Of a stretch of DNA of 64,000 nucleotides, positions 7,779 through 29,193 are shown one piece after another (positions within the stretch are counted from its first letter, which is position 1; each line of letters starts with the position of its first letter). The translations under genes were made by a program, and so were the position numbers. The stretch is from a bacterium (lineage in GTDB: Bacteria; Desulfobacterota; Binatia; Binatales; Binataceae), in assembly GCA_014896235.1 (NCBI GenBank), contig JADBKU010000028.1:83706-147705 (forward strand), written 5' to 3'. The notes under the pieces were generated by a model. That model had not been told where the DNA came from. It was given only the letters and a program-made list of their open reading frames with translations, and did no database searches.

Positions 7779-7868
7779 GCGCTCCGCGGGCCGCGTTCGC
7801 CCGCGTTGGCGGTTTCATCATGAAACTATTATGATCGCGGGAGGCGATATTCCAAGGAGTCGAATCCC

Positions 7869-8519: not shown

Positions 8520-8679
8520 CTTAACGCATCCTATTGCCGACATTGATATCCAAGTCCTGCGCAAGGCGGCCATGGCTTCATTTGATCAACGCCGCGTGTG
8601 GTTTTCTTGATCCCCCCAGTTGTGCGATCGCAAGAGGAAGCTTAAAATTGACGATGAATCGATAAGCGCCCGATTTGCA

Positions 8680-9057
8680 ATGCACGCTGCGTCAAAGTTG
8701 TTCCGCGGTATCCTTGTTGTTCTCCTCTGCCTTCTCGACATAGCCATCGCAAATGCGGGGTATGCGCCACAACCACGCCTGGCGCAAATCGATCGCACAG
8801 CCACTCATTACTCCCAACCGAGAGTTATTTGCGACAACGCCGGAGATGCGCTGACCTCGGTCGAACGCACGCGGGCGGGGCGGACTCCAGCGCAACGCAG
8901 CCCTTTACAGATGATCACGCGGCCGCCGACCATCGGTTGCCGCCTCACGCCTGAAATCACCGCACTCGCGATCGCCGCGGCAGTGTTACGCCGCCAAACC
9001 GTATCGCACCGACTGATTCGCCGACCGCTTGACGACGGTTCGGCCGCACTAGCCTAA
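8680..9057 (+). CDS. Hypothetical small secreted protein (doubtful)
   Basis: ORF with N-terminal hydrophobic signal-like segment (MHAASKLFRGILVVLLCLLDIAIANA), no domain. It lies in a roughly 790 bp leader upstream of the RND operon and may be non-coding. Confidence 0.2.
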   Translation: MHAASKLFRGILVVLLCLLDIAIANAGYAPQPRLAQIDRTATHYSQPRVICDNAGDALTSVERTRAGRTPAQRSPLQMITRPPTIGCRLTPEITALAIAAAVLRRQTVSHRLIRRPLDDGSAALA

Positions 9058-9308
9058 CCGAAGCGGCTGGCCCGTCATACGGCCGGCTTCGCGCCACAAC
9101 TTAACCGTTCACGCAAGGGATTGAGAGCGCGCGAGCGCGATCGATCCTCGGACAGCGTCTGGCGCCTCACGGCATCCAGGCGCTCGCAATGAGAACTTAC
9201 GTCGCCGCTTTTGACAGCTCGGCGACCGGCAATATGCGCAACGAAAAAATGACGGTGTCCCGGCAGCGCGGCGTCGGACGCGGCGATTCGGCCAACTGGG
9301 TTTGATCG

Positions 9309-12300: not shown

Positions 12301-12572
12301 GGCTCGCGGCGGGCGCGAGCGCGGCGCAGGCGGCGATCGAGGCCGGGTTCACGCGCATACGCCCGGTGCTGATCACCGCGGGCGCGATGATCATCGGGAT
12401 GCTGCCGACGGCTTTGAGCGCGGAGCAAAACGCTCCGCTCGGCCGCGCGGTGGTGGGCGGTTTGACGATCGCGACCATTTCAACCCTGTTTTTCGTTCCG
12501 GTCGTCTTCAGCATGGTCCACCGTGAGAATCGCGGCGAACCCGCGTCTGAAGCGAACGGATCAAGTCATTGA
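9309..12572 (+). CDS. RND efflux transporter permease subunit (AcrB/CzcA family)
   Basis: 1087 aa, 12-TM RND topology with two large periplasmic loops, conserved RND TM4/TM10 regions. Confidence 0.8.
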   Translation: MWFVKTSLKQPITIIVMTVLILLAGARATLDTPIDMFPDVNIPVVAVVWTYNGLLPDEMSARINYFFERMVTTQVNDIQSLQSEAVIGYGIIKIFFQPSVNINFAVAQVTAAAQTVLKFLPPGTTPPYVLAYNATTVPILQLAMSGKGLSQFVLFDLGNNFIRPQLASVPGAAIPLPYGGLWRHTEADLNLQAMQANGVSPADVTNALMRQNLIIPAGTEKIGRFEWHVRLNSSPVQIQSINDMPIKRVNGTVIYMRDIAYVHDGAPPQTNLVRVNGRRAVLLPVFKSGSESTLAIVAGVKRMVPLIKEAMPKSLKIRLFGDQSVFVKDAVEVVVREAVIAAVLTGLLVLLFLGDWRSTLIIVMTIPLAALFSVVVLSATGQTINSMTLGGLALAVGILVDAATVTLENFSYHLEQGKDIVTAILDGAQQIVAPSLVSLLAICIVFVPMFTLTGVSHYLFVPLALAVIYALVGAFLLSITFVPMIARYWMSESQHGTHDYTPMSRNPFARFQQRFERGFLKMRERYRALLELAVANSWRFVAGFAVAILGSLVVLTPWLGSNFFPDVDGGAILMHVSAPTGTRIEDTARLCDRIEHFMREVIRPQDIANIIDNIDIPYSPIDMAYQNTGTVGPEDADIIVQENPGHLSTFEYIKKLRRMLPNRFPSVVFSFLPADIATQILNFGAPAPIDVQVTGPDRMATYAYAVKLEKKIVHVPGTADVHIFQRFNYPMLKIDVNRSLAQMVGLTQADVARGLLEELSGSFQLRPNFWLDWKTGVSYPLQTMMPQYRIDTLADLYNMPITNPDAAANKLAPQSITSITGGATAFPGGTAVKMGPGHTTPEVLGAVATIRPAPSPSVVSHYDAQPVIDIYVNRQDRDLGSINKDIHRIIDAAASSRPPGSQIFVRGQVTIMATAYRELFAGLAVSALLVYLLITVNFQGWLDPFVVIAGLPAALAGIVWILFLTHTTLSVPALIGSIMCIGIASANSILVISFARERLAAGASAAQAAIEAGFTRIRPVLITAGAMIIGMLPTALSAEQNAPLGRAVVGGLTIATISTLFFVPVVFSMVHRENRGEPASEANGSSH

Positions 12573-12584
12573 GGAACACGAACC

Positions 12585-13883
12585 ATGTATTCATTTTCAC
12601 GGCCACAGACATATTTGATGAACCGCAACAACATGGATGCGCCTGATGGAGAGGAAAAACATCTCGACGACAAGCAGCTCCGCAAGCTCAAACAGTATGG
12701 AGCAATCGGACTTGGAATCGCGATCATTCTTGCCGTGGCGGGTATAATTTCGCGGCGCCACGCGGCTTCCCAACTCGCCATCCAGACCAACGCCGCCGCG
12801 ATCCCGACGGTCGCGACCATCCAGCCGGTAGTGGCCGCCGTGACTCCTAATCTGGTGCTGCCCGGAGACGTCGAACCCTGGTATTGGGCGCCGATCTACG
12901 GACAGGTCAGCGGCTATGTGAAGGCGTGGTACAAAGATATTGGCGCGCGCGTGAAAAAAGGCGATCTCCTCGCTGTGATCGACACGCCGGAACTCGACGC
13001 GCACGTCCTGCAAGCGAAAGCCCTGCTCGCCAAGGCGCGGGCCAACCAGAAACTGGCCGAAGTCACTTCGCAGCGCTGGAACGCGCTTTGGCGGAAAGGC
13101 CTCGGACAGCGATTCGAGCCGGTTTCCCGGCAATCGACAGATGTCACCGACTACGACTTGATGGCGGCGCAAGCGCAAACTCGGGCGGCGCAGGGCGAGC
13201 TCGATCGGCTCGAGGCGCTGGAAAAATTCAAATATCTCGTCGCGCCGTTCGACGGCGTCGTCACCGCGCGCCGCACCGACGTCGGCGCCTTCGTCAAAGC
13301 AAATGGAGTGTCGAACCAGCCCGAAATGTTCGAAGTCGCCGATACCCATATGATGCGGGTCTATGTGCGCGTGCCGCAGATGTATGCGCCGGAAATCCAT
13401 GTTGGCATGAAGGCGGTATTGCGCGTCCCGGGAATGCCCGGCGTCGAATTTCCAGCCACCGTCAATACGACCTCGAACGCGATCAATATTGATTCGCGGA
13501 CGCTGCTGGTCGAATTGTGGGCGCCAAATCCGAAAGGCGAGCTTGAACCGGGCACCTATGCGGACGTCTATTTCAAGCTGGCGCCGCGCCCCGACTCGGT
13601 CGAAATTCCCAGCAGCGCGTTGATCTTCCAAGACCACGGCCTGCAGGTCGCCGTCGTCGGCCCCGACGATCGCGCGCATCTCAAAAACGTAACCATCGGC
13701 AAGGACTTGGGAGCGAACGTGATCGTGACCTCCGGCCTCACCGCCGCCGACCGCGTAATCGACAGTCCGCCCGACGCTCTTGATAACGGCGACCTCGTGC
13801 GCGTGGTTGGAACGCACGGCGTCTTTCCGGGGCTTGAGAGCCGCCAGAACCGCGTACAACGCGTTTCCTACTCCAGCAAATGA
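12585..13883 (+). CDS. RND efflux periplasmic adaptor (membrane fusion protein, HlyD/AcrA-like)
   Basis: N-terminal TM anchor, biotinyl/lipoyl-like hairpin (GQVSGYVKAWYKDIGARVKKGDLLAVIDTPELD), coiled-coil and beta-barrel segments. GAGGAA SD upstream. Confidence 0.7.
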   Translation: MYSFSRPQTYLMNRNNMDAPDGEEKHLDDKQLRKLKQYGAIGLGIAIILAVAGIISRRHAASQLAIQTNAAAIPTVATIQPVVAAVTPNLVLPGDVEPWYWAPIYGQVSGYVKAWYKDIGARVKKGDLLAVIDTPELDAHVLQAKALLAKARANQKLAEVTSQRWNALWRKGLGQRFEPVSRQSTDVTDYDLMAAQAQTRAAQGELDRLEALEKFKYLVAPFDGVVTARRTDVGAFVKANGVSNQPEMFEVADTHMMRVYVRVPQMYAPEIHVGMKAVLRVPGMPGVEFPATVNTTSNAINIDSRTLLVELWAPNPKGELEPGTYADVYFKLAPRPDSVEIPSSALIFQDHGLQVAVVGPDDRAHLKNVTIGKDLGANVIVTSGLTAADRVIDSPPDALDNGDLVRVVGTHGVFPGLESRQNRVQRVSYSSK

Positions 13884-15379
13884 AGCGGCGCGTTTTGATG
13901 CTCGCGGCCGGCGCAATATGCCTGTTCAGCGCCTGCAACCTCGCTCCACGCTATCATTCTCCAGCCGCGACTCTGGGCGTCCTTCCCGCCAGCTATAAAG
14001 AAGGCGGCCCGTGGCAGCCCGCGACGCCGGGCGACGCCCTGCCGCGCGGTCCGTGGTGGCAAATGTACCACGATCCGGAACTGAATCAATTGGAAACCGA
14101 TCTGCTCGCCGCAAACCCAACGCTCGCCGCCGCATTGGCGAACTACGACGCGTACAAAGATCGCGCGCTCGAACTGAACGCCTATCTGTTCCCGTTCGTG
14201 ACCGCCAATGGATTATCCACTCCAAGCGCGACCACGTTGGGACCGCCGATCGGCACGCCGTACCAGATGACCTATTTCGGCAACGCCACGGCGTTCGCCG
14301 AGATCCATTACGAAGTCGACCTCTGGGATCAGATTCACAATTCGATCGCGGCCGGCGTATTCACGGCGCAGGCCGCGGCGGCGGACCTTGCATCGGCGCA
14401 ACTGAGTCTGGAGGCGGCGCTCGCTAGTTCCTACCTCACGCTGCGCGAACTCGACGACGATGTGAATCTGCTCGTCGAAACCGTCGACGTTTACCAGGCG
14501 TATCTTCAGGTCGTTGATGAACGTTATGGCGGACAGATTGCTTCCGGCCTCGAAGTGGCGCAAGCCCGCTATCAACTTGAAGCGGCGCAGGCCCAGGAAT
14601 CCGGCATCCGCGCGCAGCGGGCGGTGTACGAACATATGATCGCAGCGCTGGTCGGCCGGCCGGCCTCAGGGTTTACAATCGCGCCGAAAGTGATGGATAT
14701 CGCCGTGCCGGTGGTTCCCACCAGCGTGCCGTCGGCCCTGTTGCAACGCCGGCCGGATATCGCGGCGGCCGAACGGCGCGTCGCGGCCGCCAACGCCGAA
14801 ATCGGCGTCGCGCGCGCGGCGTTTTATCCGAACCTTTCGATTAACAATATCGTCGGTAGTTTCGGCGCGACCGGCGGCGCCGCTCTAGCCGCTCCTTTCA
14901 GCTTCTGGTCGCTTGGGCCGTCGTTGGCGATGCCGTTGTTCGAGGGCGGTCTGTTGCACGCCCAGTTGGCGCAGACCGTGGCGCAGTGGCGCGAAACTGT
15001 CGAAAACTATCGCGCCGTCGTGCTGCGGGCGTTCCGCCAAGTCGAAGACGGCCTGTCGAACGTCAATCTACTCTCGCAGGAATATCAGCAGCAGCAGAAC
15101 GCAGTTGACGACGCGGTGCGCGCGGAACAGTTGGCGTTTCAACTTTATCTGCTCGGCGCCAAAAATTACCTCGAACCACTGGTCGATCAGGCGACGGCGC
15201 TCGCGGCGGAGCAACAAGAAATAAACATCAAGGAAGCGTTGCTGCAATCCAGCGTCAATCTGATTCGCGCGCTGGGCGGCGGATGGACCACCGATGAATT
15301 GCCAAGCCGGCCGAAAGTCCTGGTGCTTACCGCGACCAGTCCGCAGGTTCCGCGTCAAACTTCGGCTCATCGATCATGA
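13880..15379 (+). CDS. Efflux outer-membrane factor lipoprotein (NodT/TolC family)
   Basis: Lipoprotein signal (LFSAC). WWQMYHDPELNQL is the NodT-family signature region. ATGA overlap with the adaptor gene. Confidence 0.7.
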   Translation: MKRRVLMLAAGAICLFSACNLAPRYHSPAATLGVLPASYKEGGPWQPATPGDALPRGPWWQMYHDPELNQLETDLLAANPTLAAALANYDAYKDRALELNAYLFPFVTANGLSTPSATTLGPPIGTPYQMTYFGNATAFAEIHYEVDLWDQIHNSIAAGVFTAQAAAADLASAQLSLEAALASSYLTLRELDDDVNLLVETVDVYQAYLQVVDERYGGQIASGLEVAQARYQLEAAQAQESGIRAQRAVYEHMIAALVGRPASGFTIAPKVMDIAVPVVPTSVPSALLQRRPDIAAAERRVAAANAEIGVARAAFYPNLSINNIVGSFGATGGAALAAPFSFWSLGPSLAMPLFEGGLLHAQLAQTVAQWRETVENYRAVVLRAFRQVEDGLSNVNLLSQEYQQQQNAVDDAVRAEQLAFQLYLLGAKNYLEPLVDQATALAAEQQEINIKEALLQSSVNLIRALGGGWTTDELPSRPKVLVLTATSPQVPRQTSAHRS

Positions 15380-15586
15380 TCGCTATCGATCGGCGCTTCC
15401 AGCGATTTTGCTGAAAGCGGTCGCGAGTTGAGTTGCGGTCATGAATATGCGCCCGATCCGGCGCGATTCTTCCCGCGCCGGATTTTGGCGCTCCGCGGGT
15501 TGGACATCTGGTTCAGCGCCGCGTTAGGATTTCCGCCGCAGGCGCGGCCTGACCATTGCCGCAATCGGCGCCGGAGGTGTCCCGCG

Positions 15587-15952
15587 ATGGCGAAATACAC
15601 ATTTGTCGTTCTGACCAATCCAACGCCCGGAAAAGAGGCGGAGTACAACGAATGGTACAATCGACAGCATATTCCGGACGTGCTGAATGTTCCCGGTTTC
15701 GTGCGCGCCCAGCGCTTCAAGCTGGCGGACGCCCAGATGGGCAAATCGAATCCGTATAAATATCTGGCGCTCTACGAGATCGAAACCGACGACCTCGCCG
15801 GCGCGCTTGCGGAATTGAAGGCGCGCAACGGCACGGCCGACATGATCATGAGCGACGCGATCGACCTGAAAAACGTCGGTGCGTATATTTTCGCGCCGGT
15901 CGCGGAGATGGTCGAAGCCAAGGACGTTCGCCGGCCCCGGCGCGCGGCCTGA
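15587..15952 (+). CDS. Small dimeric alpha+beta-barrel-like protein (EthD/Dabb-like), hypothetical
   Basis: 121 aa from an internal ATG with GGAGGTG SD. The MAKYTFVVLTNPTPGKEAEYNEWYNRQHIPDV pattern resembles EthD/Dabb-type stress proteins. Weak call. Confidence 0.4.
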   Translation: MAKYTFVVLTNPTPGKEAEYNEWYNRQHIPDVLNVPGFVRAQRFKLADAQMGKSNPYKYLALYEIETDDLAGALAELKARNGTADMIMSDAIDLKNVGAYIFAPVAEMVEAKDVRRPRRAA

Positions 15953-16080
15953 CCGGCGGCGGCGACGCGGGCCTGTCGGTCCGTCGCGCCGTCCGCAATT
16001 CTCCCGGCTCACGCGTTCGGAAGACCGCGGATTCTCTTTCGCACGCGCCCGATTCCTGCTTTTCTGATGGCGGTGCGTAA

Positions 16081-18365
<2,285 letters not shown>

Positions 18366-18381
18366 CGCGCATCTGCGGCGG

Positions 18382-19149
18382 ATGCTTTTCCCCGACGGCG
18401 CACGCCTCGCGATGCTCGCAATGCATCCCACCGCCGAGCGGATGCCGGAATCGTCGCTTTCGCGAATGATCAGCTGGTGTATCGAGGAATTCGGCGCGGG
18501 CGCGATTGGATGCGTCGCGACGCGGCAAGGGGTCGACGCCGCGGGCGCGGCGGCTTTTCTGGCCGGAACCGCCGCGCGCCGCGAGCCGGTATGCGTCCTC
18601 GGCACGACCGCGTCATTCGCGGCGCTGTTCGAGCGTCTGCGCGCGGACGGATCGCCGATTCGGCTGGCGGCGGGATCGCGAATCATGGACACGGGCGGCG
18701 CCAAGGGACAGGCCGCGCCGCTCAGCGCCGCCGCCGTGGTCGAAGCGGCGGGCGAACTGCTCGGCGTGGCGCCCGCGCTCGCGATCAACGAATACGGGAT
18801 GACTGAAATGTGCTCGCAGCTTTACGATGCGACGCCGTTCAACCGCCCCGGCGCGGCGGGAACGCCCGGCGCGCGAATGAAACTCGCACCGCCATGGCTC
18901 AAGCCGGTCGCGCTCGATCCGGTAACGATGCGCCCGCTGACGGCGGACGCCGTGGGAATGCTCGCGTTTTTCGATCTGGCCAATGTCGGTTCGATTTCGG
19001 CGCTGATGACCGAAGATTTCGGCGTCGTGCGGGGCGATGCGGTCGCGATTCTGGGCCGTGCGGCGGCGGGCGGGGCGCGCGGCTGCGCGCTCGCGATCGA
19101 TGAATTCGCGGAACGGGAACTCGCGCGCGTGACGGCGCATCGGCAATGA
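18382..19149 (+). CDS. LuxE/PaaK-like adenylate-forming (acyl-protein synthetase-like) protein, possibly N-terminally truncated
   Basis: 255 aa. P-loop-like IMDTGGAKGQ and ANL A5-like INEYGMTEMCSQLY. Shorter than typical LuxE (~370 aa). The stop overlaps the start of the LuxC-like gene (ATGA). Confidence 0.4.
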   Translation: MLFPDGARLAMLAMHPTAERMPESSLSRMISWCIEEFGAGAIGCVATRQGVDAAGAAAFLAGTAARREPVCVLGTTASFAALFERLRADGSPIRLAAGSRIMDTGGAKGQAAPLSAAAVVEAAGELLGVAPALAINEYGMTEMCSQLYDATPFNRPGAAGTPGARMKLAPPWLKPVALDPVTMRPLTADAVGMLAFFDLANVGSISALMTEDFGVVRGDAVAILGRAAAGGARGCALAIDEFAERELARVTAHRQ

Positions 19150-20435
19150 ACGGCGCTGAAGAAACGACGCCGGCGGCGCGGCGCGGCGCGAATCTCGACG
19201 GACGAGATATCGAAGCGCGAGCCGCGGAAGTGCGCGGCGCGCTGCGATCGCCGCTTGCGCCGGCGCGAATCGCGCGTGCGCTCGCGGCGGCGCTCGGCGC
19301 CTGGCGCGATCGCGCTTTCGCGACGCGCCGCCGCATCGTCGCCGCGATCGCCCAGGCGTGGGGATGGAGCGAAGCGCTGCTCGACGAATCGTTCGACGCG
19401 CTGTTCGCGCCTTTTGATTCGGAGTCGATCCGCGACTTCGCGCGGACGGCGGCCACCGCAAACGAATTAATCGGCATCGTGATGCCGGGCAATGTTCCCG
19501 GCGCCGGAATGCATGAGGTCGTCGCGGCGCTGCTCTCCGGACGCGGCTTGATCCTCAAGACGGCGAGCCCCGAACCGTTGACGTTCGCGGCGTTCGCGGA
19601 GACCTTGCGCGAGACGGACGCGGCCGTTGGCGAACGAATCGCCGTGATGAACTGGAGCCGCGAAAATCATGCGGCGAGCGCGGCGCTCGGACGCGCATGC
19701 GATTGGATCGCCGCTTTCGGCGACGATTCCACGCTCGCCGATCTGGGCCGAATCACGTCCAGCGGCCAAACCACCCGGACTCTGGCGGGCTTTGGCGCCC
19801 GGCACAGCGGCGTGGTCGTCGCCGGCCCCGATTGGACGATTGACGGCGACGAACTGGCCAACGCGATCGCGCGCGATGTCGTATTGTTCGAACAGCAAGG
19901 CTGCCTCTCGCCTCATCAGGTGATGATTGAAGCGAAGGAAGTCGCCACGGCGCGGGATTTTGTGCGGCGGCTCGCCATGGCGCTGGAACGCTGGGCGGCG
20001 CGGACGCCTCCGCCATCGCGGTTGGATTTGGAGGCTGCCGCCGCAGTGAGACGGATGCGCGAAAGCGCACGCTGGCGGATGCTGGGCGGCGACGCGGGCG
20101 TCGAATTGCTGGAGGGTGGCGGATGGGGTGAGCCGCATCGATGGACCGTCGTCTTCGACGATCGCGCCGAGTTCACGCTATCGCCAGGCTTTCGCGCGCT
20201 GACGGTCGCTCGCTACGCGAACGATAACGAATTGTACGATCGGTTAAGCCGCTTTTCAGGCCGTTTCGAGGCTTTTGCGCTCGCGGCGCCGCCGGCGCGT
20301 TGGAACGATCCGCACCAAATCCTGAAGCGTCTCGGCGCCACCTACATTTGCAAGCCGGGCGCGATGCAATCGCCGCCGCTGGATTGGCGGCATGGCGGCG
20401 GCGTCTTTCTCGAGCGGCTGAGACCTTCGCCATGA
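19146..20435 (+). CDS. LuxC-like acyl-CoA/acyl-protein reductase (aldehyde-forming, ALDH superfamily)
   Basis: 429 aa. IVMPGNVPG motif, ALDH-type catalytic Cys context FEQQGCLSPHQ. Size and layout as PF05893-type reductases. Confidence 0.55.
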   Translation: MNGAEETTPAARRGANLDGRDIEARAAEVRGALRSPLAPARIARALAAALGAWRDRAFATRRRIVAAIAQAWGWSEALLDESFDALFAPFDSESIRDFARTAATANELIGIVMPGNVPGAGMHEVVAALLSGRGLILKTASPEPLTFAAFAETLRETDAAVGERIAVMNWSRENHAASAALGRACDWIAAFGDDSTLADLGRITSSGQTTRTLAGFGARHSGVVVAGPDWTIDGDELANAIARDVVLFEQQGCLSPHQVMIEAKEVATARDFVRRLAMALERWAARTPPPSRLDLEAAAAVRRMRESARWRMLGGDAGVELLEGGGWGEPHRWTVVFDDRAEFTLSPGFRALTVARYANDNELYDRLSRFSGRFEAFALAAPPARWNDPHQILKRLGATYICKPGAMQSPPLDWRHGGGVFLERLRPSP

Positions 20436-21637
20436 GCCGCGCGCGCGACGCCTTCCTGCGCCATCTGGCGCAAACCTCCGACGCGCCGATCGGCCTGGAA
20501 ATCGAACGGGCCGAAGGATGCTGGCTTTATTGCGCCGATGGCCGCCGTTATCTCGACCTGATCGCGGGAATCGGCGTGAGCGCGCTGGGACATGGAAATC
20601 CCGCCGTGCTCGCGGCGATCGCGCGGCAATCGCGCCGCCATCTGCATGCGATGGTTTACGGCGAGTACGTAATCGAAGCGCAAGCGGAATATGCGGCGCG
20701 GCTCGCGGAAGCGCTGCCGCGGACGCTGTCCCGCGTTTATTTCACCAACAGCGGCGCGGAAGCGATCGAGGGCGCGCTCAAGGCCGCGCGCAAATTCACC
20801 GGCCGCGCCACCTTCGTTTCGTTCGACGGCGCGTATCACGGCGACACGATGGCGGCGTTGGCGTTGATGGGCAACGAGACTTTTCGCGCGCCGTTTGAAC
20901 CGCTGCCTGGTCCGGTGCGGCGTTTGCCTTTCGGCGACAGCGGCGCGCTCGAATCGATCGATGAAAGCGTCGCGGCCGTGGTGATCGAACCAATCCAGGC
21001 GGAGGGCGGCGTCAGAATTCCATCTCGCGAATTCATGCTGGCGCTGCGCGAACGATGTTCGCGCGTCGGAGCGCTGCTGGTTTTCGACGAGGTGCTGACC
21101 GGGTTGGGACGCACCGGGCGGCTGTTCGCGATGGAACATTTCGGCGTCAGGCCCGATCTGATCGTGCTGGCCAAAGCGCTGGGCGGCGGAATGCCGCTCG
21201 GGGCGTTTTGCGGCAGCGATGAAATTCTCGGACGGCTGGCGCACGATCCGCCGCTCGGCCATATCACCACCTTCGGCGGCCATCCGGTCTCCTGCGCCGC
21301 CGGCCGCGCCGCCTTCGATCAGATTTTGTCCAATCGATTGTGGGAAACCGCCGATACATCCGGAGCGGCGTTCCGCTCGCGCCTCGAGCAGATGATCGGC
21401 CGTCAAATCCTGGCGGTGCGCGGACTCGGGTTATTAATCGGAATCGAGTTCGCGCGGGCGGCCTCAGCGCATCGCTTCGTCGCCGAAACGATCGCTCGGG
21501 GCGTCGTGATCAATTGGACGCTTAATTCTGACCGCGTGGTCAGGCTTGCTCCGCCTCTAACGATATCCGCACTGGAACTGGATTTTGCCTTCGACGCGAT
21601 GAACCACGCCCTTGAAGCAATAGCGCCGGACGGGTAG
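20432..21637 (+). CDS. Class III (omega) aminotransferase, ArgD/acetylornithine-AT-like
   Basis: Class III fold-I motifs: GVSALGHGNPAV, VFDEVLTGLGRTGRLFAMEHFGVRPDLIVLAKALGGGMPLGAF (PLP lysine in AKALGGG), TFGGHPVSCAAG. ATGA overlap with the LuxC-like gene. Confidence 0.7.
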   Translation: MSRARDAFLRHLAQTSDAPIGLEIERAEGCWLYCADGRRYLDLIAGIGVSALGHGNPAVLAAIARQSRRHLHAMVYGEYVIEAQAEYAARLAEALPRTLSRVYFTNSGAEAIEGALKAARKFTGRATFVSFDGAYHGDTMAALALMGNETFRAPFEPLPGPVRRLPFGDSGALESIDESVAAVVIEPIQAEGGVRIPSREFMLALRERCSRVGALLVFDEVLTGLGRTGRLFAMEHFGVRPDLIVLAKALGGGMPLGAFCGSDEILGRLAHDPPLGHITTFGGHPVSCAAGRAAFDQILSNRLWETADTSGAAFRSRLEQMIGRQILAVRGLGLLIGIEFARAASAHRFVAETIARGVVINWTLNSDRVVRLAPPLTISALELDFAFDAMNHALEAIAPDG

Positions 21638-21649
21638 GGATTAAACATC

Positions 21650-22981
21650 GTGGGGGCTGCCGCATCGGCACGAAGGGCGTTTTATCGTCCGCGCAAGGTT
21701 ACTAGCAAACCGGTTGCGCCTGTGCGCCCCAAACAGGTTTCGCCACAACAGCTCGAAGCTGAATTCGACGACAATGTTGAAGCTGTAGACATTCTCAAGA
21801 AGTCCGGTCCGGTCGGAATCTTCTTTGTCGTCGCCTATATCGCGATCGACGCTCGTGCGCATCTGGCGGGGAAATCGACCCTGGCGCTCGAGTATCACTG
21901 GTTCGCGCTGGCCGTCGTACTTTTGTTCTTTGGCCTGACCTGGCTGCCGGGGTTCCGCGCACACTGGCGGTTCTGGTCGTTTATGACCTGCCTCGTGATG
22001 ATCTCGCTGATTATCAGGATCAGCGGAATCACTCACGAAGGCGCCACGCGTTATATCACGATTGTTCTTTGTCCGTTCGCGACGGCCGCATTCGTGATTT
22101 GGGGCTGGCGATGGCAGTTGCTCCTGATAATTTCCTGCTTTCTGCTCTATTTGATCGGCGAAATCCTGGTTCCGATCGGGCCGCGCTTCGATATCCACCG
22201 GCTGCTTGGATTGCTCGCGGCGCTCACGCTTTCGCAATTCACGGCGGTCTTTCTGGATCGTTACCGGCGCAGGTTGCGCCGGCAGTTGATCCAATTGGCC
22301 GAGGCCGCGGCGTTCCGTGAGACCCAGATCGCGACCATGACCCACGATATCCGCAATCCGCTGGCCACGCTGGTCGGGCTGGTAACATTGCTGGTGGAGG
22401 ACGACCTGGAGGAAAAGGACCGCAGCAATCTGCTCGCGCGCGTCTGGTCAACCACCACCTCGATGGATTTGTTGGTCAAAAATGTGCTCGACCTCTACCT
22501 TCTGGAGGAGCAGCGGCTGCGGCCGAATTGGCGGCCGATCGACGCCAACAGCGTGATCGCGGAAACGGCGGAGCATTGCGCTATCGAAGCGCGGCTCAAG
22601 GGATTGCGCCTGCGGGTCGATTTGGGCGGATTGCCGAAGGCGAGCCTCGATCCGCTTCATCTCGAACGGATCGTCGCCAATCTCGTGACGAGCGCCGTAC
22701 GGCGCACGCCGGCAGGCGAGGTGCGGCTGCAAACCTCGCAGTTTGGCGATTGGATTGTGGTCGAAGTCAGCGACACCGGCCCGGAGGCGACGCCTCACGA
22801 AATCGAGCATATCTTCGATCGGCCGAATCTGGCGGTCGATGGCGCGCGCTCATCCGCGCTCGGGCGCTATATCGCGCACGCGCTGGTCGAGGCCGACGGC
22901 GGCAAAATTCAGGCTCGCGTCGAAGAGGGGTGGGGACTCAACCTGATCGTGCAGTTGCCGATCGAGCCGCCGATTCGCTGA
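21650..22981 (+). CDS. Membrane sensor histidine kinase (orphan)
   Basis: About 6 TM helices, then HisKA (MTHDIRNPLATLVGL) and HATPase_c (VSDTGPEATPHEIEHIF, N/G boxes). No response regulator adjacent. Confidence 0.65.
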   Translation: MGAAASARRAFYRPRKVTSKPVAPVRPKQVSPQQLEAEFDDNVEAVDILKKSGPVGIFFVVAYIAIDARAHLAGKSTLALEYHWFALAVVLLFFGLTWLPGFRAHWRFWSFMTCLVMISLIIRISGITHEGATRYITIVLCPFATAAFVIWGWRWQLLLIISCFLLYLIGEILVPIGPRFDIHRLLGLLAALTLSQFTAVFLDRYRRRLRRQLIQLAEAAAFRETQIATMTHDIRNPLATLVGLVTLLVEDDLEEKDRSNLLARVWSTTTSMDLLVKNVLDLYLLEEQRLRPNWRPIDANSVIAETAEHCAIEARLKGLRLRVDLGGLPKASLDPLHLERIVANLVTSAVRRTPAGEVRLQTSQFGDWIVVEVSDTGPEATPHEIEHIFDRPNLAVDGARSSALGRYIAHALVEADGGKIQARVEEGWGLNLIVQLPIEPPIR

Positions 22982-23120
22982 TTACAGCCCTGGATTCTCA
23001 AGAAAGATCGATACAGGGTTTGCACGCGGTCAAATTTCACGTTGCGCCGACCTCGTTGCGCTATAGTGCATCCACCCGCATCGGCGCGCGCGCGTCCGGG
23101 CGAACCCGAGGAGAAACGCC

Positions 23121-24578
23121 ATGGATTTGGCGAAAAAGTCGAAATCAGCCGCGATTCGCGCACGGCTGAACCATCCGATAATCGATTCCGACGGCCATCA
23201 GATGGAGCTGCCGACGGTCTTTCAGGATTATATGCGCGAAGTGGGCGGCGCGGAGATTATCGATCGTTTCAGAGCGGTCTTTTTCGACACTTTCTTCGAT
23301 CCGCGATGGCGCAATTTCTCGCCCGCCGAGCGCCATCAGCGGCGTACGATTCGGCCCACATGGTGGGCCTGCCCGGCGCGAAACACTCGTGACTTGGCGA
23401 CCGCGCTCATGCCGCGCCTGTTCCATGAGCGGATGGACGAAATGGGACTCGACGTTTCGATCGTCTATCCGACTCTCGGGCTGCTGGCGGTGCAGATGGA
23501 AGACGACGAAGTGCGGCGCGCGGCGGCGCGCGCGCTGAATCGGATGAAGGCCGATATGTTCAGTGGGCTTACCGATCGGCTGATTCCGGTCGCGACGATC
23601 CCGATGCATACGCCGGAGGAAGCGATCGCAGAGCTTGAATATGCGGTGGGCGAGCTAGGCCTGCGCGCGGTCATGATGGCGAGCTACGTGCGAAGGCCGA
23701 TCGAATTCGCGAAAAAAATCTCGCCCGAAGCCGCCCGCTACGCAATCTGGATGGACACCTACGGGCTGGACAGCGAATACGACTACGATCCGGTCTGGGC
23801 GAAATGCGTCGAACTCGGCGTTTCGCCGACGTTTCATTCCGTGGGTTACGGATGGGGAAGCCGGGCCACGCCGTCGAATTACGTTCACAACCATCTGGGA
23901 AACTTCGCCGCCAGCGCCGACGCGATTTGCCGCGGCCTGGTCATGGGCGGCGTGCCGATGCGCTTTCCGACGCTGCGTTTCGCCTTCATGGAGGGCGGCG
24001 CGGCCTGGGCGCGCAATCTGTATTGCGATTTGATTTCACACTGGCGCAAGCGCAATCGCGCCGCGATGGAAAACTACAATCCGGCGAATATCAACGACGC
24101 GGTTTTTGTCGAACTGGCGCGCCGCTACGGAAGCGGCGGAATCGCGGAGCGCGCGGAGGAGATGCTGAAGGCTTTTCGCGGCTTCATGCAACGCGGCGAA
24201 GATCCGGCGCTGCTCGACGAATGGGAGCGGAGCGGCATCCGGCGGCCCGAAGATATTCGCGACATCTTCGCCGAACGTTTCTACTTCGGCTGCGAGGGCG
24301 ACGATCCGATGAACCTGCTCGCCTATGACGCGAAGGGATCTCCGTTCGGCGCGCGCCTGCGCGCGCTCTATGGTTCCGATCTCGGCCACTGGGACGTGCC
24401 CGAGATGGTCGAAGCGGCGGAGGAGGCGTACGAGCTGGTCGAAGAGGGCCTGCTGGGCGAAGAGAATTTCCGCGCGATGGTTTTCGACGACGCCGTGAAA
24501 TTCTGGACCGCGGCGAATCCGAATTTCTTCGCCGGAACAATCGTTGAGGACGCCGCGCGTCGCGCCTGCGCGGGCTGA
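23121..24578 (+). CDS. Amidohydrolase-2 family (TIM-barrel metal-dependent hydrolase/decarboxylase) protein
   Basis: 485 aa. N-terminal IIDSDGH metal motif, later HSVGYGWG and FMEGGAAW segments typical of PF04909-like enzymes. GAGGAG SD. Confidence 0.6.
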   Translation: MDLAKKSKSAAIRARLNHPIIDSDGHQMELPTVFQDYMREVGGAEIIDRFRAVFFDTFFDPRWRNFSPAERHQRRTIRPTWWACPARNTRDLATALMPRLFHERMDEMGLDVSIVYPTLGLLAVQMEDDEVRRAAARALNRMKADMFSGLTDRLIPVATIPMHTPEEAIAELEYAVGELGLRAVMMASYVRRPIEFAKKISPEAARYAIWMDTYGLDSEYDYDPVWAKCVELGVSPTFHSVGYGWGSRATPSNYVHNHLGNFAASADAICRGLVMGGVPMRFPTLRFAFMEGGAAWARNLYCDLISHWRKRNRAAMENYNPANINDAVFVELARRYGSGGIAERAEEMLKAFRGFMQRGEDPALLDEWERSGIRRPEDIRDIFAERFYFGCEGDDPMNLLAYDAKGSPFGARLRALYGSDLGHWDVPEMVEAAEEAYELVEEGLLGEENFRAMVFDDAVKFWTAANPNFFAGTIVEDAARRACAG

Positions 24579-24634
24579 TGAGGCCGCTGAGCTTAATTGC
24601 CGCGCCGCCGGGGCGCGCCATGGGGAGATAAATC

Positions 24635-26215
24635 TTGCGCTACGGCTTTGTCATCGACCACAACCGATGCATCGGATGCCACGCCTGCACGGTTGCGTGC
24701 AAGGAAGAAAACGACGTTCCCGTCGGCGTATTCCGCACCTGGGTCAAATACATCGAAAAGGGCGAGTTTCCCAACTCGAGCCGGCACTTCGGGGTGATGC
24801 GGTGCAATCACTGCGAAGCCGCTCCATGCGTCGAAATCTGTCCGACGCAGGCGCTCTTTCATCGTCCGGATGGCATCGTCGATTTCGACAACAGCCGCTG
24901 CATCGGATGCAAATCGTGCATGCAGGCCTGCCCGTATGACGCGCTCTATCTCGATCCGCGCACCCATACGGCCGCCAAATGCAATTTCTGCGCGCATCGC
25001 ATCGAACGCAATCTGGAGCCTGCTTGCGTGATCGTATGTCCGACGCAGGCGATCATCGCGGGCGATATCGACAACCCCGAATCGCAAGCGGGGAGGATGG
25101 TTGCGAGCGGCAAGCTCGGCGTACGCAAACCGCATAAAGCCACTCAGCCAAAACTGTTCTACTCCGGAATCGAGGGCGATTTCCTTGATCCCTCGATGAT
25201 GACGCCGCAATCGAGTTATCTCTGGTCCGATCGTCCCCCTGACGGAAATCCCTACGCTGTCGCGCCGCCATCCGCGAACTCCAAGCCGGCGCCAGGCGCG
25301 GCGCGCGTGGTTTACGACGTGGCGCATCAACGGCCTTGGGGATTGATTCCGGTCTTCTACTTGTGGACCAAGGCGATCGCCGCGGGACTGATCATCATCG
25401 CCGCGTTCGTCATGGGAATTGATCCCGAACTCGCCGCCTCGCGCGGGCCGCTGCTGAACGAATTCGCGCCGCTCGCCGCGATAATTTTTCTGGCGATAAC
25501 GACAGCGCTCCTGATCGCCGACCTCGACCGCCCCGAACGTTTTTATTTCATCCTGATCAAACCCAACCCGCGATCATGGCTGGTGCGCGGCACCTGGATT
25601 CTGATGCTGTTCGGCGCCCTTGCTGCTGCGTTGCTTGGGTACGCGGTGATATGGCGCGCGCCCGCGCCCGCGGCGTTACGATGGGCGGCGGCGGCGGCCG
25701 GCGCCGGATCCGCATGTTACTCGGCGTTCCTGTTCGCGCAGGGACGCGGCCGCGATCTTTGGCAGAATTCCTCCTTTCTATGGATCCTGCTGGCGCAAGC
25801 GGTGGTCGCCGGCGCCGCGGCGATGATTCTGCTTGCGATCCTCGCGAGTTCGCCCGCGATGCGGCATGCCGGGGCGATGGCGAATCCGGGCCTCGTCCGG
25901 AAAATGGACGTGGTGATGCTAATCGGCGTGTCGTTCAACGCCGCGATCGCGATTGGAATCGTGATGCTACCGCAATATACGGCCGACGCGCGCAAAGCGA
26001 TCGAACTGATCCGCAGCGGGCGGCTGCGCTCGAGCTTCTGGTACGGCGTGATTGGCGCCGGCAACCTGATGCCCGCGCTGCTTGCGGCGTTTCTTATCTG
26101 GCACGGCGCGTCCGACCGCGGGTTGGATCGGCTGACGGCGATTCTGGCGCTGCTCGGCGTGCTGGTGTTCGACGAAATCTGGATTCTGGCCGGCCAGGCC
26201 GCGCCGCTGAGCTGA
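24635..26215 (+). CDS. Fused 4x[4Fe-4S] ferredoxin (PsrB/DmsB-like) and NrfD/PsrC-like membrane anchor
   Basis: TTG start with GGGGAG SD. Four Cys clusters (CIGCHACTVAC, CNHCEAAPCVEICP, CIGCKSCMQACP, CNFCAHRIERNLEPACVIVCP), then about 8 TM helices of NrfD type. Confidence 0.7.
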   Translation: MRYGFVIDHNRCIGCHACTVACKEENDVPVGVFRTWVKYIEKGEFPNSSRHFGVMRCNHCEAAPCVEICPTQALFHRPDGIVDFDNSRCIGCKSCMQACPYDALYLDPRTHTAAKCNFCAHRIERNLEPACVIVCPTQAIIAGDIDNPESQAGRMVASGKLGVRKPHKATQPKLFYSGIEGDFLDPSMMTPQSSYLWSDRPPDGNPYAVAPPSANSKPAPGAARVVYDVAHQRPWGLIPVFYLWTKAIAAGLIIIAAFVMGIDPELAASRGPLLNEFAPLAAIIFLAITTALLIADLDRPERFYFILIKPNPRSWLVRGTWILMLFGALAAALLGYAVIWRAPAPAALRWAAAAAGAGSACYSAFLFAQGRGRDLWQNSSFLWILLAQAVVAGAAAMILLAILASSPAMRHAGAMANPGLVRKMDVVMLIGVSFNAAIAIGIVMLPQYTADARKAIELIRSGRLRSSFWYGVIGAGNLMPALLAAFLIWHGASDRGLDRLTAILALLGVLVFDEIWILAGQAAPLS

Positions 26216-26226
26216 GGAGCTGCAAA

Positions 26227-29052
26227 TTGAGCGAGGAACCGAAACCGCTTAATCCGGCGGCGTCTGGATTAGAGGCGCCAGCAGGCGGACTCGAAAGTTT
26301 TCCGCCGGCGGCGCAATGGGACGACTGGCGCGAATACGATCCAGCTCAATGGCCGCGCAAAGTCGAACGGCAATACCGGCTCATCCCGACCATCTGTTTC
26401 AATTGCGAAGCGGGATGCGGCTTGCTGGCCTATGTTGACAAGGCGAGCGGCCAAATCCGCAAATTCGAGGGCAACCCTGTGCATCCGGGAAGCCGCGGCC
26501 GCAACTGCGCGAAGGGCCCGGCGACGCTCAGCCAGGTTTACGACACGGAACGCATCCGCCACCCGATGCGGCGCGCGGGCAAGCGCGGCGAAGGCAAATG
26601 GGAGCGCGTATCGTGGGATGAAGCTCTAGACGATCTCGCTGCGCGGATTCGCAAAGCGCTCCTTGAAGGCCGGCGCGACCAGGTGCTCTATCACGTCGGC
26701 CGGCCGGGACATGAATTGATTTACAACCAGCGCGTGCTGCACGCGTGGGGAATCGACGGCCACAACAGCCACACCAATATCTGCTCGGCGGGAGCGCGCA
26801 CCGGCTACGCGTTCTGGCATGGGATCGATCGGCCGTCGCCCGACCACGCCAATGCGCGCTTCATCCTGCTGCTCAGCTCGCATCTCGAGGCCGGCCATTA
26901 TTTCAATCCGCATGCGCAGCGGATTATCGACGGCAAAGCGCGCGGCGCGAAAATCTGCGTAATCGATACGCGGCTTTCCAACACCGCTGCGCGCGCCGAC
27001 TACTGGCTGCCGACCTGGCCGGGAAGCGAAGCTGCGGTGTTGCTGGCGATGTGCAAGGTCTTGCTGGACGAGAACCTGTACGATAGCGACTTCGTGCGGC
27101 GCTGGGTGAATTGGGAGGAATATCTGCGCGCGGCCCATCCGGATCTGGAGCCGACCTTTGAAAACTTCGTCGCGGCGCTGAAGCAGGTCTATGCGCAATT
27201 CACGCCCGAGTTCGCCGAGCGCGAATCCGGCGCGCCGGCGGCGACGATCATCGAGGTCGCGCGCGAAATTGGCCGCGCCGGCCATGCGGTCGCTACGCAC
27301 GTCTGGCGCGGCGCGGCGGCCGGCAATCTCGGCGGATGGCAGGTGGCGCGCGCGCTCGAATTTCTTGCCGTGCTGGTCGGCGCCGTCGCAACGCCGGGCG
27401 GAACCGCGCCGGCGGCCTTCAACAAATTCATTCCGGCGCCGCCGTTGATGCCGCCGCCGCCGGCGGCGTGGAACGAGCTGACCTGGCCGCGCGAATATCC
27501 GCTCGCCTTCTTCGAGATGAGTTTTCTGATGCCGCACTTCCTTAAAGAAGGGCGCGGCAAACTCGCGGCCTACTTCACGCGCGTTTACAATCCGGTCTGG
27601 ACAAATCCCGACGGCATGACCTGGATTGAAGTGCTGCGCGACGAAACCCTGGTCGAACGGCACGCCTGCCTGACGCCGGTATGGAGCGAGACGGCGTGGT
27701 TCGCCGATTACGTGCTGCCGATGGGCCATGCGTCGGAGCGGCACGATCTGATGAGCCAGGAGACGCACGCCGCGCGCTGGATCGGATTCCGCCAGCCGGT
27801 GCTCCGGGTAGCGCTCGAACGCGCAGGCAAACGCTTCGCCACGACCTGGGAAGCGCATCGCGAAGCCGGTATCGGCGAAATTTGGGAGGAAGACGAATTC
27901 TGGATCGAACTCTCGTGGCGAATCGATCCCGACGGCGCGATGGGCATCCGGAAATACTTCGAGTCGCCGTACCGTCCGGGCGAAAAACTGACTATCGACG
28001 AATATTACCGGTGGATTTTTGAGAATAGCGTCCCCGGACTGCCTGCCGCGGCGGCGCGCGAGAACCTTTCGCCGCTTGAATTCATGCGCAAGTACGGAGC
28101 GTTTCTGATCGAAGGGAATCCCTACGGCCTGCATGAAAAACAGCTTGGGGCGGACCAACTCGAAGGCGCCAGCGTCGATGGCGCGTCACGCGTGATCAAA
28201 CGCGGCGGCGCGGCGATCGGCGTCGAAATAGACGGCGTCGCGCGGACGGGCTTTCCGACTCCCTCGCGCAAACTGGAATTTTTTTCGCCCACGCTCGCGG
28301 AGTGGAAGTGGCCGGAAATGTCGATTCCATTCTACGTCCGCAGCCACGTTCATCCCGATTCGATCGATCGCGAAAAGGGCGAGATGCTGCTGCTGCCGAC
28401 TTTCCGGCTGCCGACGCTGGTGCATACCCGTTCCGGAAACGCGAAATGGCTGTACGAAATATCGCATCGCAATCCGCTCTGGCTGCATCCCGAGGACGCC
28501 GCAAGATTCAAAGTCGGGACCGGCGATTTGCTCAAGGTTGTGACCGAAATCGGCTACTTTGTCGACCGCGTATGGGTCACGGACGGAATCCGGCCGGGCG
28601 TCGTCGCCTGCTCCCATCATCTTGGAAGATGGCGGCTTAACGATGAGCAAGGCGGCGAACGATGGTCCACCGCGCTCGTGGATCTGCGCGAGACTGAGCC
28701 AGGTAAATGGTTCATGCGACAGATTCACGGAGTGCGACCGTTTCCGAGCGAGGACGCCGACTCGGGCCGGGTATGGTGGGAGGACGCCGGGGTGCATCAG
28801 AACCTGACCTTCCCGGTGCAGCCCGATCCAATCAGCGGCGCTCACTGCTGGCATCAGAAAGTTCGCTTGGAAAAACCCGAGCCTCAGGATCGCTACGGCG
28901 ACATATTCGTCGACACCAGCGCGGCGCATGAGGTGTACCGTCGCTGGATCGCGATGGCGCGCCCCGCGCCGGGTCCCGGCGGACTGCGCCGCCCACTGTG
29001 GCTGGCGCGCGCATACCGGCCCGCCGATGAGGCGTTTTACATCAAGTCGTAA
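26227..29052 (+). CDS. Molybdopterin oxidoreductase catalytic subunit (DMSO reductase family), no Tat signal
   Basis: The long ORF 25576-29052 runs out of frame over the upstream gene. A TTG at 26227 with GAGGAG SD gives about 941 aa. N-terminal FS0 cluster CFNCEAGCG, MopB domain, C-terminal molybdopterin dinucleotide-binding region. No RR Tat motif. Confidence 0.65.
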   Translation: MSEEPKPLNPAASGLEAPAGGLESFPPAAQWDDWREYDPAQWPRKVERQYRLIPTICFNCEAGCGLLAYVDKASGQIRKFEGNPVHPGSRGRNCAKGPATLSQVYDTERIRHPMRRAGKRGEGKWERVSWDEALDDLAARIRKALLEGRRDQVLYHVGRPGHELIYNQRVLHAWGIDGHNSHTNICSAGARTGYAFWHGIDRPSPDHANARFILLLSSHLEAGHYFNPHAQRIIDGKARGAKICVIDTRLSNTAARADYWLPTWPGSEAAVLLAMCKVLLDENLYDSDFVRRWVNWEEYLRAAHPDLEPTFENFVAALKQVYAQFTPEFAERESGAPAATIIEVAREIGRAGHAVATHVWRGAAAGNLGGWQVARALEFLAVLVGAVATPGGTAPAAFNKFIPAPPLMPPPPAAWNELTWPREYPLAFFEMSFLMPHFLKEGRGKLAAYFTRVYNPVWTNPDGMTWIEVLRDETLVERHACLTPVWSETAWFADYVLPMGHASERHDLMSQETHAARWIGFRQPVLRVALERAGKRFATTWEAHREAGIGEIWEEDEFWIELSWRIDPDGAMGIRKYFESPYRPGEKLTIDEYYRWIFENSVPGLPAAAARENLSPLEFMRKYGAFLIEGNPYGLHEKQLGADQLEGASVDGASRVIKRGGAAIGVEIDGVARTGFPTPSRKLEFFSPTLAEWKWPEMSIPFYVRSHVHPDSIDREKGEMLLLPTFRLPTLVHTRSGNAKWLYEISHRNPLWLHPEDAARFKVGTGDLLKVVTEIGYFVDRVWVTDGIRPGVVACSHHLGRWRLNDEQGGERWSTALVDLRETEPGKWFMRQIHGVRPFPSEDADSGRVWWEDAGVHQNLTFPVQPDPISGAHCWHQKVRLEKPEPQDRYGDIFVDTSAAHEVYRRWIAMARPAPGPGGLRRPLWLARAYRPADEAFYIKS

Positions 29053-29193
29053 ACTAGAGTAAGCGACGAATTTAGCCGTTATAGGCCGCCATAGAGCAGA
29101 ATTGCGCGGCACTCATCCTAGATTACGCGCGCGCTGGATTTTCAACTTCACAATCGCGTAAGTCTGGCTACAATACGCGAACCGCGATGGAGT

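Follow-up and report, generated by a model that had tools for sequence, protein, structure and literature searches.

The subject of this work is a cassette of genes related to luxE and luxC in a 64,000-nucleotide stretch of a Binataceae contig (JADBKU010000028.1, positions 83,706 to 147,705 of the forward strand; assembly GCA_014896235.1), hereafter the window. We favour, with some reserve, the reading that window positions 18361-22981 are a 5'-truncated copy of a conserved five-gene unit that most likely converts a carboxylic acid into an aldehyde and then into an amine. The unit comprises a divergent gene for a small exported protein, then three translationally coupled enzyme genes (for a LuxE-like adenylating enzyme, a LuxC-like reductase and a class III aminotransferase) and a gene for a membrane histidine kinase. 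An earlier note on this DNA, made from the letters alone, had proposed the same acid-aldehyde-amine sequence for the three enzymes; the protein families, the catalytic residues and the linkage in 84 related loci fit this proposal, but the first enzyme is truncated in the window. The locus is laid out as follows, in window coordinates and with the basis of each call in brackets.

16084-22981, forward strand: six consecutive open reading frames, ORFs (ORF list)
16084..17385, forward strand: enolase gene (eno), after which no gene of the left segment is intact (Pfam Enolase_N and Enolase_C, E=2.8e-125; collinear in L096, a contig of the same species)
17382..18359, forward strand: 5' fragment of gpmI, the gene for cofactor-independent phosphoglycerate mutase, codons 1-326 of about 511 (TIGR01307, Pfam Metalloenzyme, L096)
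18359..18360, no strand: breakpoint between the gpmI and luxE fragments (three-way comparison of the window, L096 and a second same-species contig, L091)
18361..19149 (ORF 18382-19149), forward strand: 3' fragment of the gene for the LuxE-like adenylating enzyme, codons 110-371 (LuxE profile, orthologue alignment)
19146..20435, forward strand: intact gene for a LuxC-like acyl-thioester reductase of aldehyde dehydrogenase (ALDH) fold, 429 residues (PF05893)
20432..21637, forward strand: intact gene for a class III (fold type I) aminotransferase, 401 residues (PF00202)
21650..22981, forward strand: gene for a membrane histidine kinase with HisKA and HATPase_c domains (Pfam, hydropathy)

Both ATGA stop/start overlaps pointed out in the earlier note are present, one joining luxE to the LuxC gene (19146-19149) and the other joining the LuxC gene to the aminotransferase gene (20432-20435). 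The aminotransferase stop is separated from the GTG start of the kinase by a spacer that we count as 12 nucleotides (nt), not 13.

A conserved unit

The unit was surveyed in 84 non-redundant related loci collected by tblastn in an alignment-based metagenome scan, most of them labelled Binataceae where the source names them; L002 was the one locus that a scan of genome contigs yielded for a single LuxC query. Statements below on absent gene families refer to the gene tables of 12 related loci. A LuxE-like gene lies directly upstream of the LuxC gene in 66 of 66 testable loci and an aminotransferase gene directly downstream in 75 of 76, while a histidine kinase gene follows the aminotransferase gene in 38 of 40 and the divergent gene for the small exported protein is found in all 53. 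The LuxE-LuxC-aminotransferase trio, whose recurrence elsewhere the earlier note had left to a survey of this kind, thus recurs almost without exception. Extrapolated from where the tblastn alignments end, the aminotransferase start lies an estimated -3 to +15 nt from the end of the LuxC gene in 74 of 75 loci, and the linkage holds down to 40% LuxC identity. Measured against the window or L002 proteins, LuxC has a median identity of 46%, LuxE of 60%, the aminotransferase of 71% and the kinase of 43%.

One locus, L065 (5000-12600), is the exception: it has the small-protein, LuxE and LuxC genes without aminotransferase or kinase genes, followed by convergent amidase, MotA, FliG and flagellin genes. 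A distant LuxE-LuxC pair whose LuxC is 29% identical to that of the window (L009, 6801-9785) also lacks the aminotransferase and is followed by a gene of the 6-pyruvoyl-tetrahydropterin synthase family. As L009 keeps LuxE without the aminotransferase, the aminotransferase link appears to be specific to the LuxC clade of the cassette, and LuxE/LuxC pairs seem to be combined with differing downstream enzymes in differing lineages. Two irregular gene calls were also seen: in L008 (9406-9672) the aminotransferase is called as an 88-residue fragment, although tblastn covers residues 50-396, and the gene is probably frameshifted; protein P0107 (446 residues) carries both LuxC and Aminotran_3 Pfam domains and is either a fusion or a frameshift.

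Beyond the unit, a PrpB-like lyase gene is present in 21 of 32 testable loci and a DHA2 efflux pump gene in 6 of 31; these are therefore variable neighbours. The pump gene, which is EmrB-type and of the major facilitator superfamily, stands after the kinase or the aminotransferase (for example L005 7761-9362 and L007 10571-12175); such an exporter would match a product that is cationic or hydrophobic. The lyase gene, which resembles those of the isocitrate lyase/phosphoenolpyruvate mutase family, was considered as a sign of phosphonate synthesis; this was rejected, as the protein is PrpB-like, scores below all cut-offs and accompanies the unit at only part of the loci.

The LuxE-like and LuxC-like proteins

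In Photobacterium, the acid is activated by LuxE as an adenylate and then bound in thioester linkage to a C-terminal cysteine of this enzyme, which passes the acyl group to the LuxC cysteine, from which reduction by NADPH (reduced nicotinamide adenine dinucleotide phosphate) releases the aldehyde; LuxC keeps only the cysteine of the ALDH catalytic set (PMC12041015). The ORF at 19146, whose placement in the LuxC/ALDH family the earlier note had singled out for checking, belongs to the LuxC family by PF05893 (E=3.1e-41, 142 bits against a gathering threshold of 21). A profile of the LuxC-like family aligns over nearly the full length (positions 29-404, E=1.2e-18) with LuxC of Photobacterium phosphoreum in structure 7xc6 (7xc6_A), and LFEQQGCLSPH falls on YDQQACFS of that chain, which puts Cys253 on the catalytic cysteine of Photobacterium LuxC. 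Cys253 and Asn116 are invariant in the LuxC-like family, as are the GNVPG and EQQGCLSPH motifs that the earlier note had picked out. The position of the ALDH catalytic glutamate, which has no equivalent in these proteins, is filled by GFGxRxSG, aligned with KFGPKKS of LuxC, which argues for a protein that should reduce rather than oxidise. More than 100 homologues are found at E below 1e-58, after which identity drops to 26-30%; where names are given, these are Candidatus Binataceae or "Deltaproteobacteria" metagenome-assembled genomes (MAGs).

The first gene, which the earlier note had read as a LuxE/PaaK-like enzyme, proved to be a remnant: it corresponds to residues 110-371 of a 371-residue orthologue, and the ATG at 18382, where the ORF begins, is the codon for Met117 within that protein. 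PF04443 (LuxE), the one Pfam profile named in the note that does not reach its threshold here, covers only positions 208-388 of 391 in the window ORF and scores 21.1 bits against a gathering threshold of 24.9, whereas the intact orthologue in L091 scores 34.9 bits over positions 38-388. Orthologues are 368-403 residues long. Their TSGT motif (residues 85-88), invariant in 64 aligned sequences, aligns with SSGTSG of LuxE in 7xc6_E; the window copy, starting only at residue 110, has lost this nucleotide-binding P-loop. An RGC motif near residue 350, about 21 residues from the C-terminus, is likewise invariant in the 64-sequence alignment and is kept in the window.

The class III aminotransferase

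PF00202 matches the third protein over profile positions 6-403 of 403 (336 bits, E=3e-100). The motif of the lysine that binds pyridoxal 5'-phosphate, LAKALGGG, is intact, as the earlier note had said, and aligns with the same motif in 1vef (Thermus ArgD/LysJ) and 4uox (E. coli putrescine aminotransferase). The Arg of VVRLAPPL and the Glu of QAEGG are also kept; we take this pair to serve the amino-acid/oxo-acid half-reaction in class III enzymes. The NCBIfam PigE model matches at 1.9e-85, orthologues are labelled "aspartate aminotransferase family protein" by PGAP and acetylornithine aminotransferase by JGI, and only cassette-type orthologues, with at least 71% identity, occur among the top 120 matches listed. 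The protein stays below the curated cut-offs of all 25 NCBIfam families listed (the 25 best of 69). A HemA/HemL-like route to aminolevulinate was considered and rejected, hemL not being among these 25 best matches.

A difference from ArgD lies in the motif AYHGDT, which aligns with GFSGRT of 1vef and places Asp138 at the position of an arginine that, in ArgD, LysJ, OAT and GabT, presumably binds the distal carboxylate of the substrate. The same position is lysine in 4uox and aspartate in 51 of 51 cassette aminotransferases. Because Asp replaces the distal-carboxylate Arg, the invariant residue argues against an N-acetylornithine-type substrate; it fits a putative substrate whose distal end is neutral or cationic, fatty aldehydes and amino-aldehydes being examples.

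Proposed pathway and alternatives

From family membership, conserved residues and linkage we infer a reaction sequence, its direction and possible substrates. The LuxE-like enzyme would adenylate a carboxylic acid with adenosine triphosphate (ATP) and hold it as a thioester on the C-terminal cysteine of RGC. The acyl group would then be handed to Cys253 of the LuxC-like reductase, where reduction by NAD(P)H would release a free aldehyde, and the aminotransferase would turn this aldehyde into a primary amine with an amino acid as donor, the Glu/Arg pair probably accommodating the dicarboxylate co-substrate.

Several observations weigh against this assignment. Both proteins are remote from true Lux enzymes by NCBIfam scores (44 bits against an equivalog cut-off of 750 for the LuxC-like protein, NF052251, and 58 bits against 550 for the LuxE-like protein). 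The HMMER alignment to 7xc6_E stops before the RGC region, so that the conserved cysteine is not aligned with LuxE Cys364. Finally, the high median identity of the aminotransferase relative to LuxC (71% versus 46%) would fit a housekeeping role too.

Such a role is the core of an alternative that we consider improbable but worth keeping in view, in which the unit replaces core chemistry of the ArgB/ArgC or ProB/ProA type. LuxE and LuxC would here act on an amino-acid-like compound (glutamate, aspartate or an omega-amino acid, for instance) by reducing its side-chain carboxylate, and transamination would then yield a diamine or diamino acid, for example ornithine, diaminobutyrate or putrescine. 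The order of reactions would be formally equal to that of ArgB-ArgC-ArgD, the aminotransferase is nearest to ArgD/LysJ and to putrescine aminotransferase, the invariant aspartate at the distal site could bind an ammonium group, and both the conservation of the unit across the 84 loci and the slow evolution of the aminotransferase agree with a basic function. On the other side, characterised LuxE/LuxC pairs use long-chain fatty acids, and operons for core amino-acid synthesis do not usually include a histidine kinase.

It is less probable still, and in our view doubtful, that the aminotransferase is an ordinary ArgD/LysJ enzyme of arginine or lysine synthesis standing by chance beside an unrelated LuxE/LuxC pair. 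ArgD models are its best NCBIfam matches, its best PDB match is a Thermus acetylornithine/acetyl-lysine aminotransferase (E=4.5e-79), and the JGI label and the very high sequence conservation point the same way. The ArgD scores nevertheless stay below cut-off (347.2 bits against 410.05 for TIGR00707 and 346.8 against 457 for NF002874), the putrescine aminotransferase match in the PDB is nearly as good (E=2.5e-74), and the ArgD/LysJ arginine is replaced by the invariant aspartate. Moreover, in 74 of the 75 loci the aminotransferase gene begins across or right beside the LuxC stop, and no arg gene was found among the called genes of the 12 loci. A housekeeping ArgD, which the earlier note had allowed for, is therefore not borne out for a gene that directly follows LuxC in 75 loci.

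A catabolic unit, in which the aminotransferase deaminates an amine to an aldehyde that the LuxC-like protein oxidises, is very unlikely: the LuxC family does lie in the ALDH superfamily (PF00171 matches weakly, at E=9.4e-8, and the NCBI name is "aldehyde dehydrogenase family protein") and putrescine aminotransferase-like enzymes are catabolic, but there is no equivalent of the ALDH catalytic glutamate for thioester hydrolysis (LuxC mechanism: PMC12041015), and the ATP-dependent adenylating partner found in 66 of 66 loci would have no role in oxidation.

The histidine kinase and the exported protein

The last gene of the cassette encodes a kinase with HisKA (37.9 bits) and HATPase_c (55.3 bits) domains, the H-box THDIRNPL and an N-terminus with about six hydrophobic, presumably transmembrane, segments by hydropathy. 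Its description in the earlier note as an orphan kinase with six such segments stands: no Response_reg gene lies next to it in the window or in the kinase-bearing related loci with gene tables read. This kinase, co-transcribed with the enzyme genes, probably links the pathway to a membrane signal. The small exported protein (about 150 residues; L091 2678-3124, reverse strand) has a hydrophobic N-terminus, falls into no Pfam or NCBIfam family and is encoded divergently from luxE; it may belong to the unit. The window is without its gene, which was lost at the breakpoint.

Taken further, and only tentatively, the five-gene unit could be a Binataceae-typical system in which a LuxE/LuxC pair free of acyl carrier protein (ACP) works with a dedicated aminotransferase to make a primary amine, for instance a long-chain alkylamine or a diamine derived from an omega-amino acid, whose level would be read by the co-transcribed six-helix kinase. 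If true, an abundant lineage of uncultured soil bacteria would possess a new natural way from acid to amine, connected with signalling or with the chemistry of the envelope, or else a substitute for part of polyamine or arginine synthesis.

The breakpoint between gpmI and luxE

The earlier note had described the cassette as embedded in an eno-gpmI operon. This setting does not hold, because gpmI breaks off at position 326 of 504 of its profile and is continued, across a join at 18359/18360, by the luxE fragment in another reading frame. The eno 3' end overlaps the gpmI start (17382). TIGR01307 matches the gpmI ORF only over positions 4-326 and Pfam Metalloenzyme only over positions 4-88 of 252; beyond "...GIRNLRIA" the ORF reads luxE sequence in the wrong frame until it meets a stop at 18806. 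Window positions 7380-18359 are collinear with L096 (96.7% identical), where gpmI encodes the full 511 residues and is followed by unrelated genes, and this alignment stops exactly at 18359. Positions 18359-29443 are collinear with L091 (98.1% identical), and likewise with L092 and L093; in these three contigs luxE is intact (371 residues) and has genes for the small exported protein, a PrpB-like lyase and a DsbA-like protein as 5' neighbours. L002, a 92%-identical relative (MAG labelled Deltaproteobacteria), also carries a 371-residue LuxE-like gene with a TSGTTKG loop, and its similarity to the window starts only within that gene. The first 326 codons of gpmI thus stand in for the first 109 codons of luxE and its native upstream region.

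As intact gpmI (L096) and intact luxE (L091-L093) lie in separate neighbourhoods, the glycolytic neighbourhood of the cassette is the product of a breakpoint and has no functional meaning, whether it arose by misassembly or by deletion. No glycolytic gene lies 3' of the cassette in the window, and the missing parts of gpmI and luxE are found nowhere else in it. The pathway as encoded in the window cannot work, because its first enzyme is truncated.

We lean slightly towards a metagenome assembly misjoin as the origin of the junction; that a single join destroys both luxE, with which the cassette begins, and gpmI, a glycolytic gene of high conservation, speaks for a misjoin. A real recent deletion or rearrangement in the strain is quite conceivable, though we hold it to be the less probable origin; gpmI and luxE would then be pseudogenes and the cassette dead here, with the LuxC, aminotransferase and kinase genes transcribed, if at all, by read-through from eno. 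Several observations speak for such a deletion and against a misjoin. In the three-way comparison the two segments share exactly only CC at the join, that is 2 nt of microhomology, and there is no repeat or shared k-mer that could mislead a de Bruijn assembler; both flanks have the same orientation and are 100% identical to Logan contigs of one and the same sequencing run; and the chimera is carried in the NCBI annotation. A deletion would, however, kill a glycolytic enzyme that is 74-98% conserved among its 120 closest database homologues, and the remnants show no decay, with no frameshift, no stop and a substitution pattern like that of neighbouring genes. Same-species contigs from four other samples have the genes intact and more than 8 kb from each other's context. 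The join is neither backed nor contradicted independently: of the same-run Logan contigs one stops at 18008 and the next begins at 18585 (350 nt before and 225 nt after the junction) and none spans it, and exact-sequence look-ups of the 474-residue chimeric ORF, P0234, and the 255-residue luxE remnant matched no contig. Around the breakpoint (window 18328-18369), intact gpmI of L096 and intact luxE of L091 are identical at 19 of 42 nt (p ~0.017 against random offsets), a weak similarity that could have favoured template switching or illegitimate recombination.

In the NCBI annotation the 474-residue gpmI::luxE chimera (17382-18806) is a 2,3-bisphosphoglycerate-independent phosphoglycerate mutase (iPGM), MBE3604505.1. 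The LuxC-like protein is MBE3604506.1; with the two numbered consecutively, no luxE protein is annotated between them, and the luxE remnant is without a protein annotation. In this deposited metagenome-assembled contig, a gene-to-gene join has thus yielded a false iPGM annotation and a false operon context.

Scans for promoters and terminators gave signals no higher than in shuffled controls. On the 5' side of eno (window 9309-15952) lie a resistance-nodulation-division (RND) efflux triad (ACR_tran, membrane fusion protein and OEP) and a gene for a small DUF4286 protein, a segment collinear with L096. On the 3' side of the kinase (window 23121-29052), genes encode an Amidohydro_2 protein without an NCBIfam match, a fused 4Fe-4S/NrfD-like membrane protein and a 941-residue molybdopterin oxidoreductase, in an order also found in the close relatives L002, L003 and L091.

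Comparison with known systems

The closest counterpart of the first two enzymes is the LuxC-LuxE pair of P. phosphoreum (7xc6). Both systems have the two protein families side by side, with alignable LuxE P-loop and LuxC catalytic cysteine and no ALDH catalytic glutamate; the invariant cysteine near the C-terminus of the LuxE-like protein is a candidate for the acyl-accepting one. The systems differ in that the similarity is remote and that the cassette has the order E then C, with an aminotransferase and a histidine kinase in the operon; no luciferase (LuxAB) or LuxD family was found among the called genes of the 12 related loci. Homologues of LuxC and LuxE also occur in flagellin glycosylation islands of Aeromonas and Enterobacteriaceae (PMC7874193, PMC4875605), which resemble the cassette as non-luminous LuxE/LuxC pairs amid other biosynthetic genes. 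Those islands carry ACP, FabG, coenzyme A ligase and glycosyltransferase genes, whereas the cassette has none of these and is partnered by the aminotransferase and the kinase.

For amine formation, the nearest precedent is the Tab system of Streptomyces albus, in which the ACP TabQ, the LuxC-like acyl-ACP reductase TabE and the omega-transaminase TabA give dodecylamine (bioRxiv 10.1101/2025.08.11.669332). Here too, a LuxC-related reductase of the ALDH superfamily is followed by a stand-alone class III transaminase to form a primary amine. Tab, however, uses an ACP-bound thioester and an ATP-independent reductase step within a tambjamine biosynthetic gene cluster, while in the cassette the reductase is paired with a LuxE-type adenylating enzyme, neither an ACP nor natural-product genes are present, and the occurrence extends across a Binataceae-like lineage; no ACP family occurs among the called cassette genes of the 12 loci. 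In Pseudoalteromonas tunicata, TamA and TamH make fatty amines from fatty acids (PMC9594044, PMC5939613); in the prodigiosin pathway, PigE combines thioester reduction and transamination in one protein (PMC8341465). As proposed for the cassette, these systems activate the acid, here a fatty acid, by adenylation, hold it in thioester linkage and form the aldehyde by reduction, after which a class III domain carries out the transamination; in contrast to the separate proteins and ALDH-fold reductase of the cassette, they use a thioester reductase domain of the short-chain dehydrogenase/reductase type fused to the transaminase, with an ACP domain as carrier. Actinobacterial polyketide alkaloids are likewise formed by reductive release followed by transamination (PMC5365063).

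The ArgB-ArgC-ArgD and LysZ-LysY-LysJ routes share with the cassette the order of carboxylate activation, reduction to a semialdehyde and class III transamination, and the cassette aminotransferase is most like ArgD/LysJ. ArgB-ArgC-ArgD differs in using an acyl phosphate rather than the cassette's predicted adenylation and thioester, in an unrelated reductase family and in the arginine that stands in ArgD where the cassette has aspartate.

The earlier note did not recognise the cassette as a described operon. The logic of activated acid, aldehyde and amine is known from the Tam, Tab, PigE and polyketide alkaloid systems, but no LuxE/LuxC version of it was found in the literature: searches on Binatia with LuxC and on LuxE/LuxC with aminotransferase clusters returned no description of the cassette, and the Binatota genome paper is silent on these genes. 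The cassette differs from these systems in the LuxE-type self-acylating activator in place of an ACP, the organisation as separate, translationally coupled proteins, the kinase in the operon, the conservation across the Binataceae-like loci sampled and the occurrence outside natural-product clusters.

Significance

Biocatalysis builds the conversion of acids to amines from carboxylic acid reductases and omega-transaminases. If the proposed chemistry holds, the cassette would be a compact natural route, free of carrier proteins, from a free carboxylic acid to a primary amine, with a single adenylating enzyme, a single ALDH-fold reductase and a single transaminase. Its loci come from soil, peat and other environmental metagenomes, and since the cassette is present at 84 related loci from such sources, its product may stand out among the metabolites or signals of these uncultured bacteria, which are common in soils.

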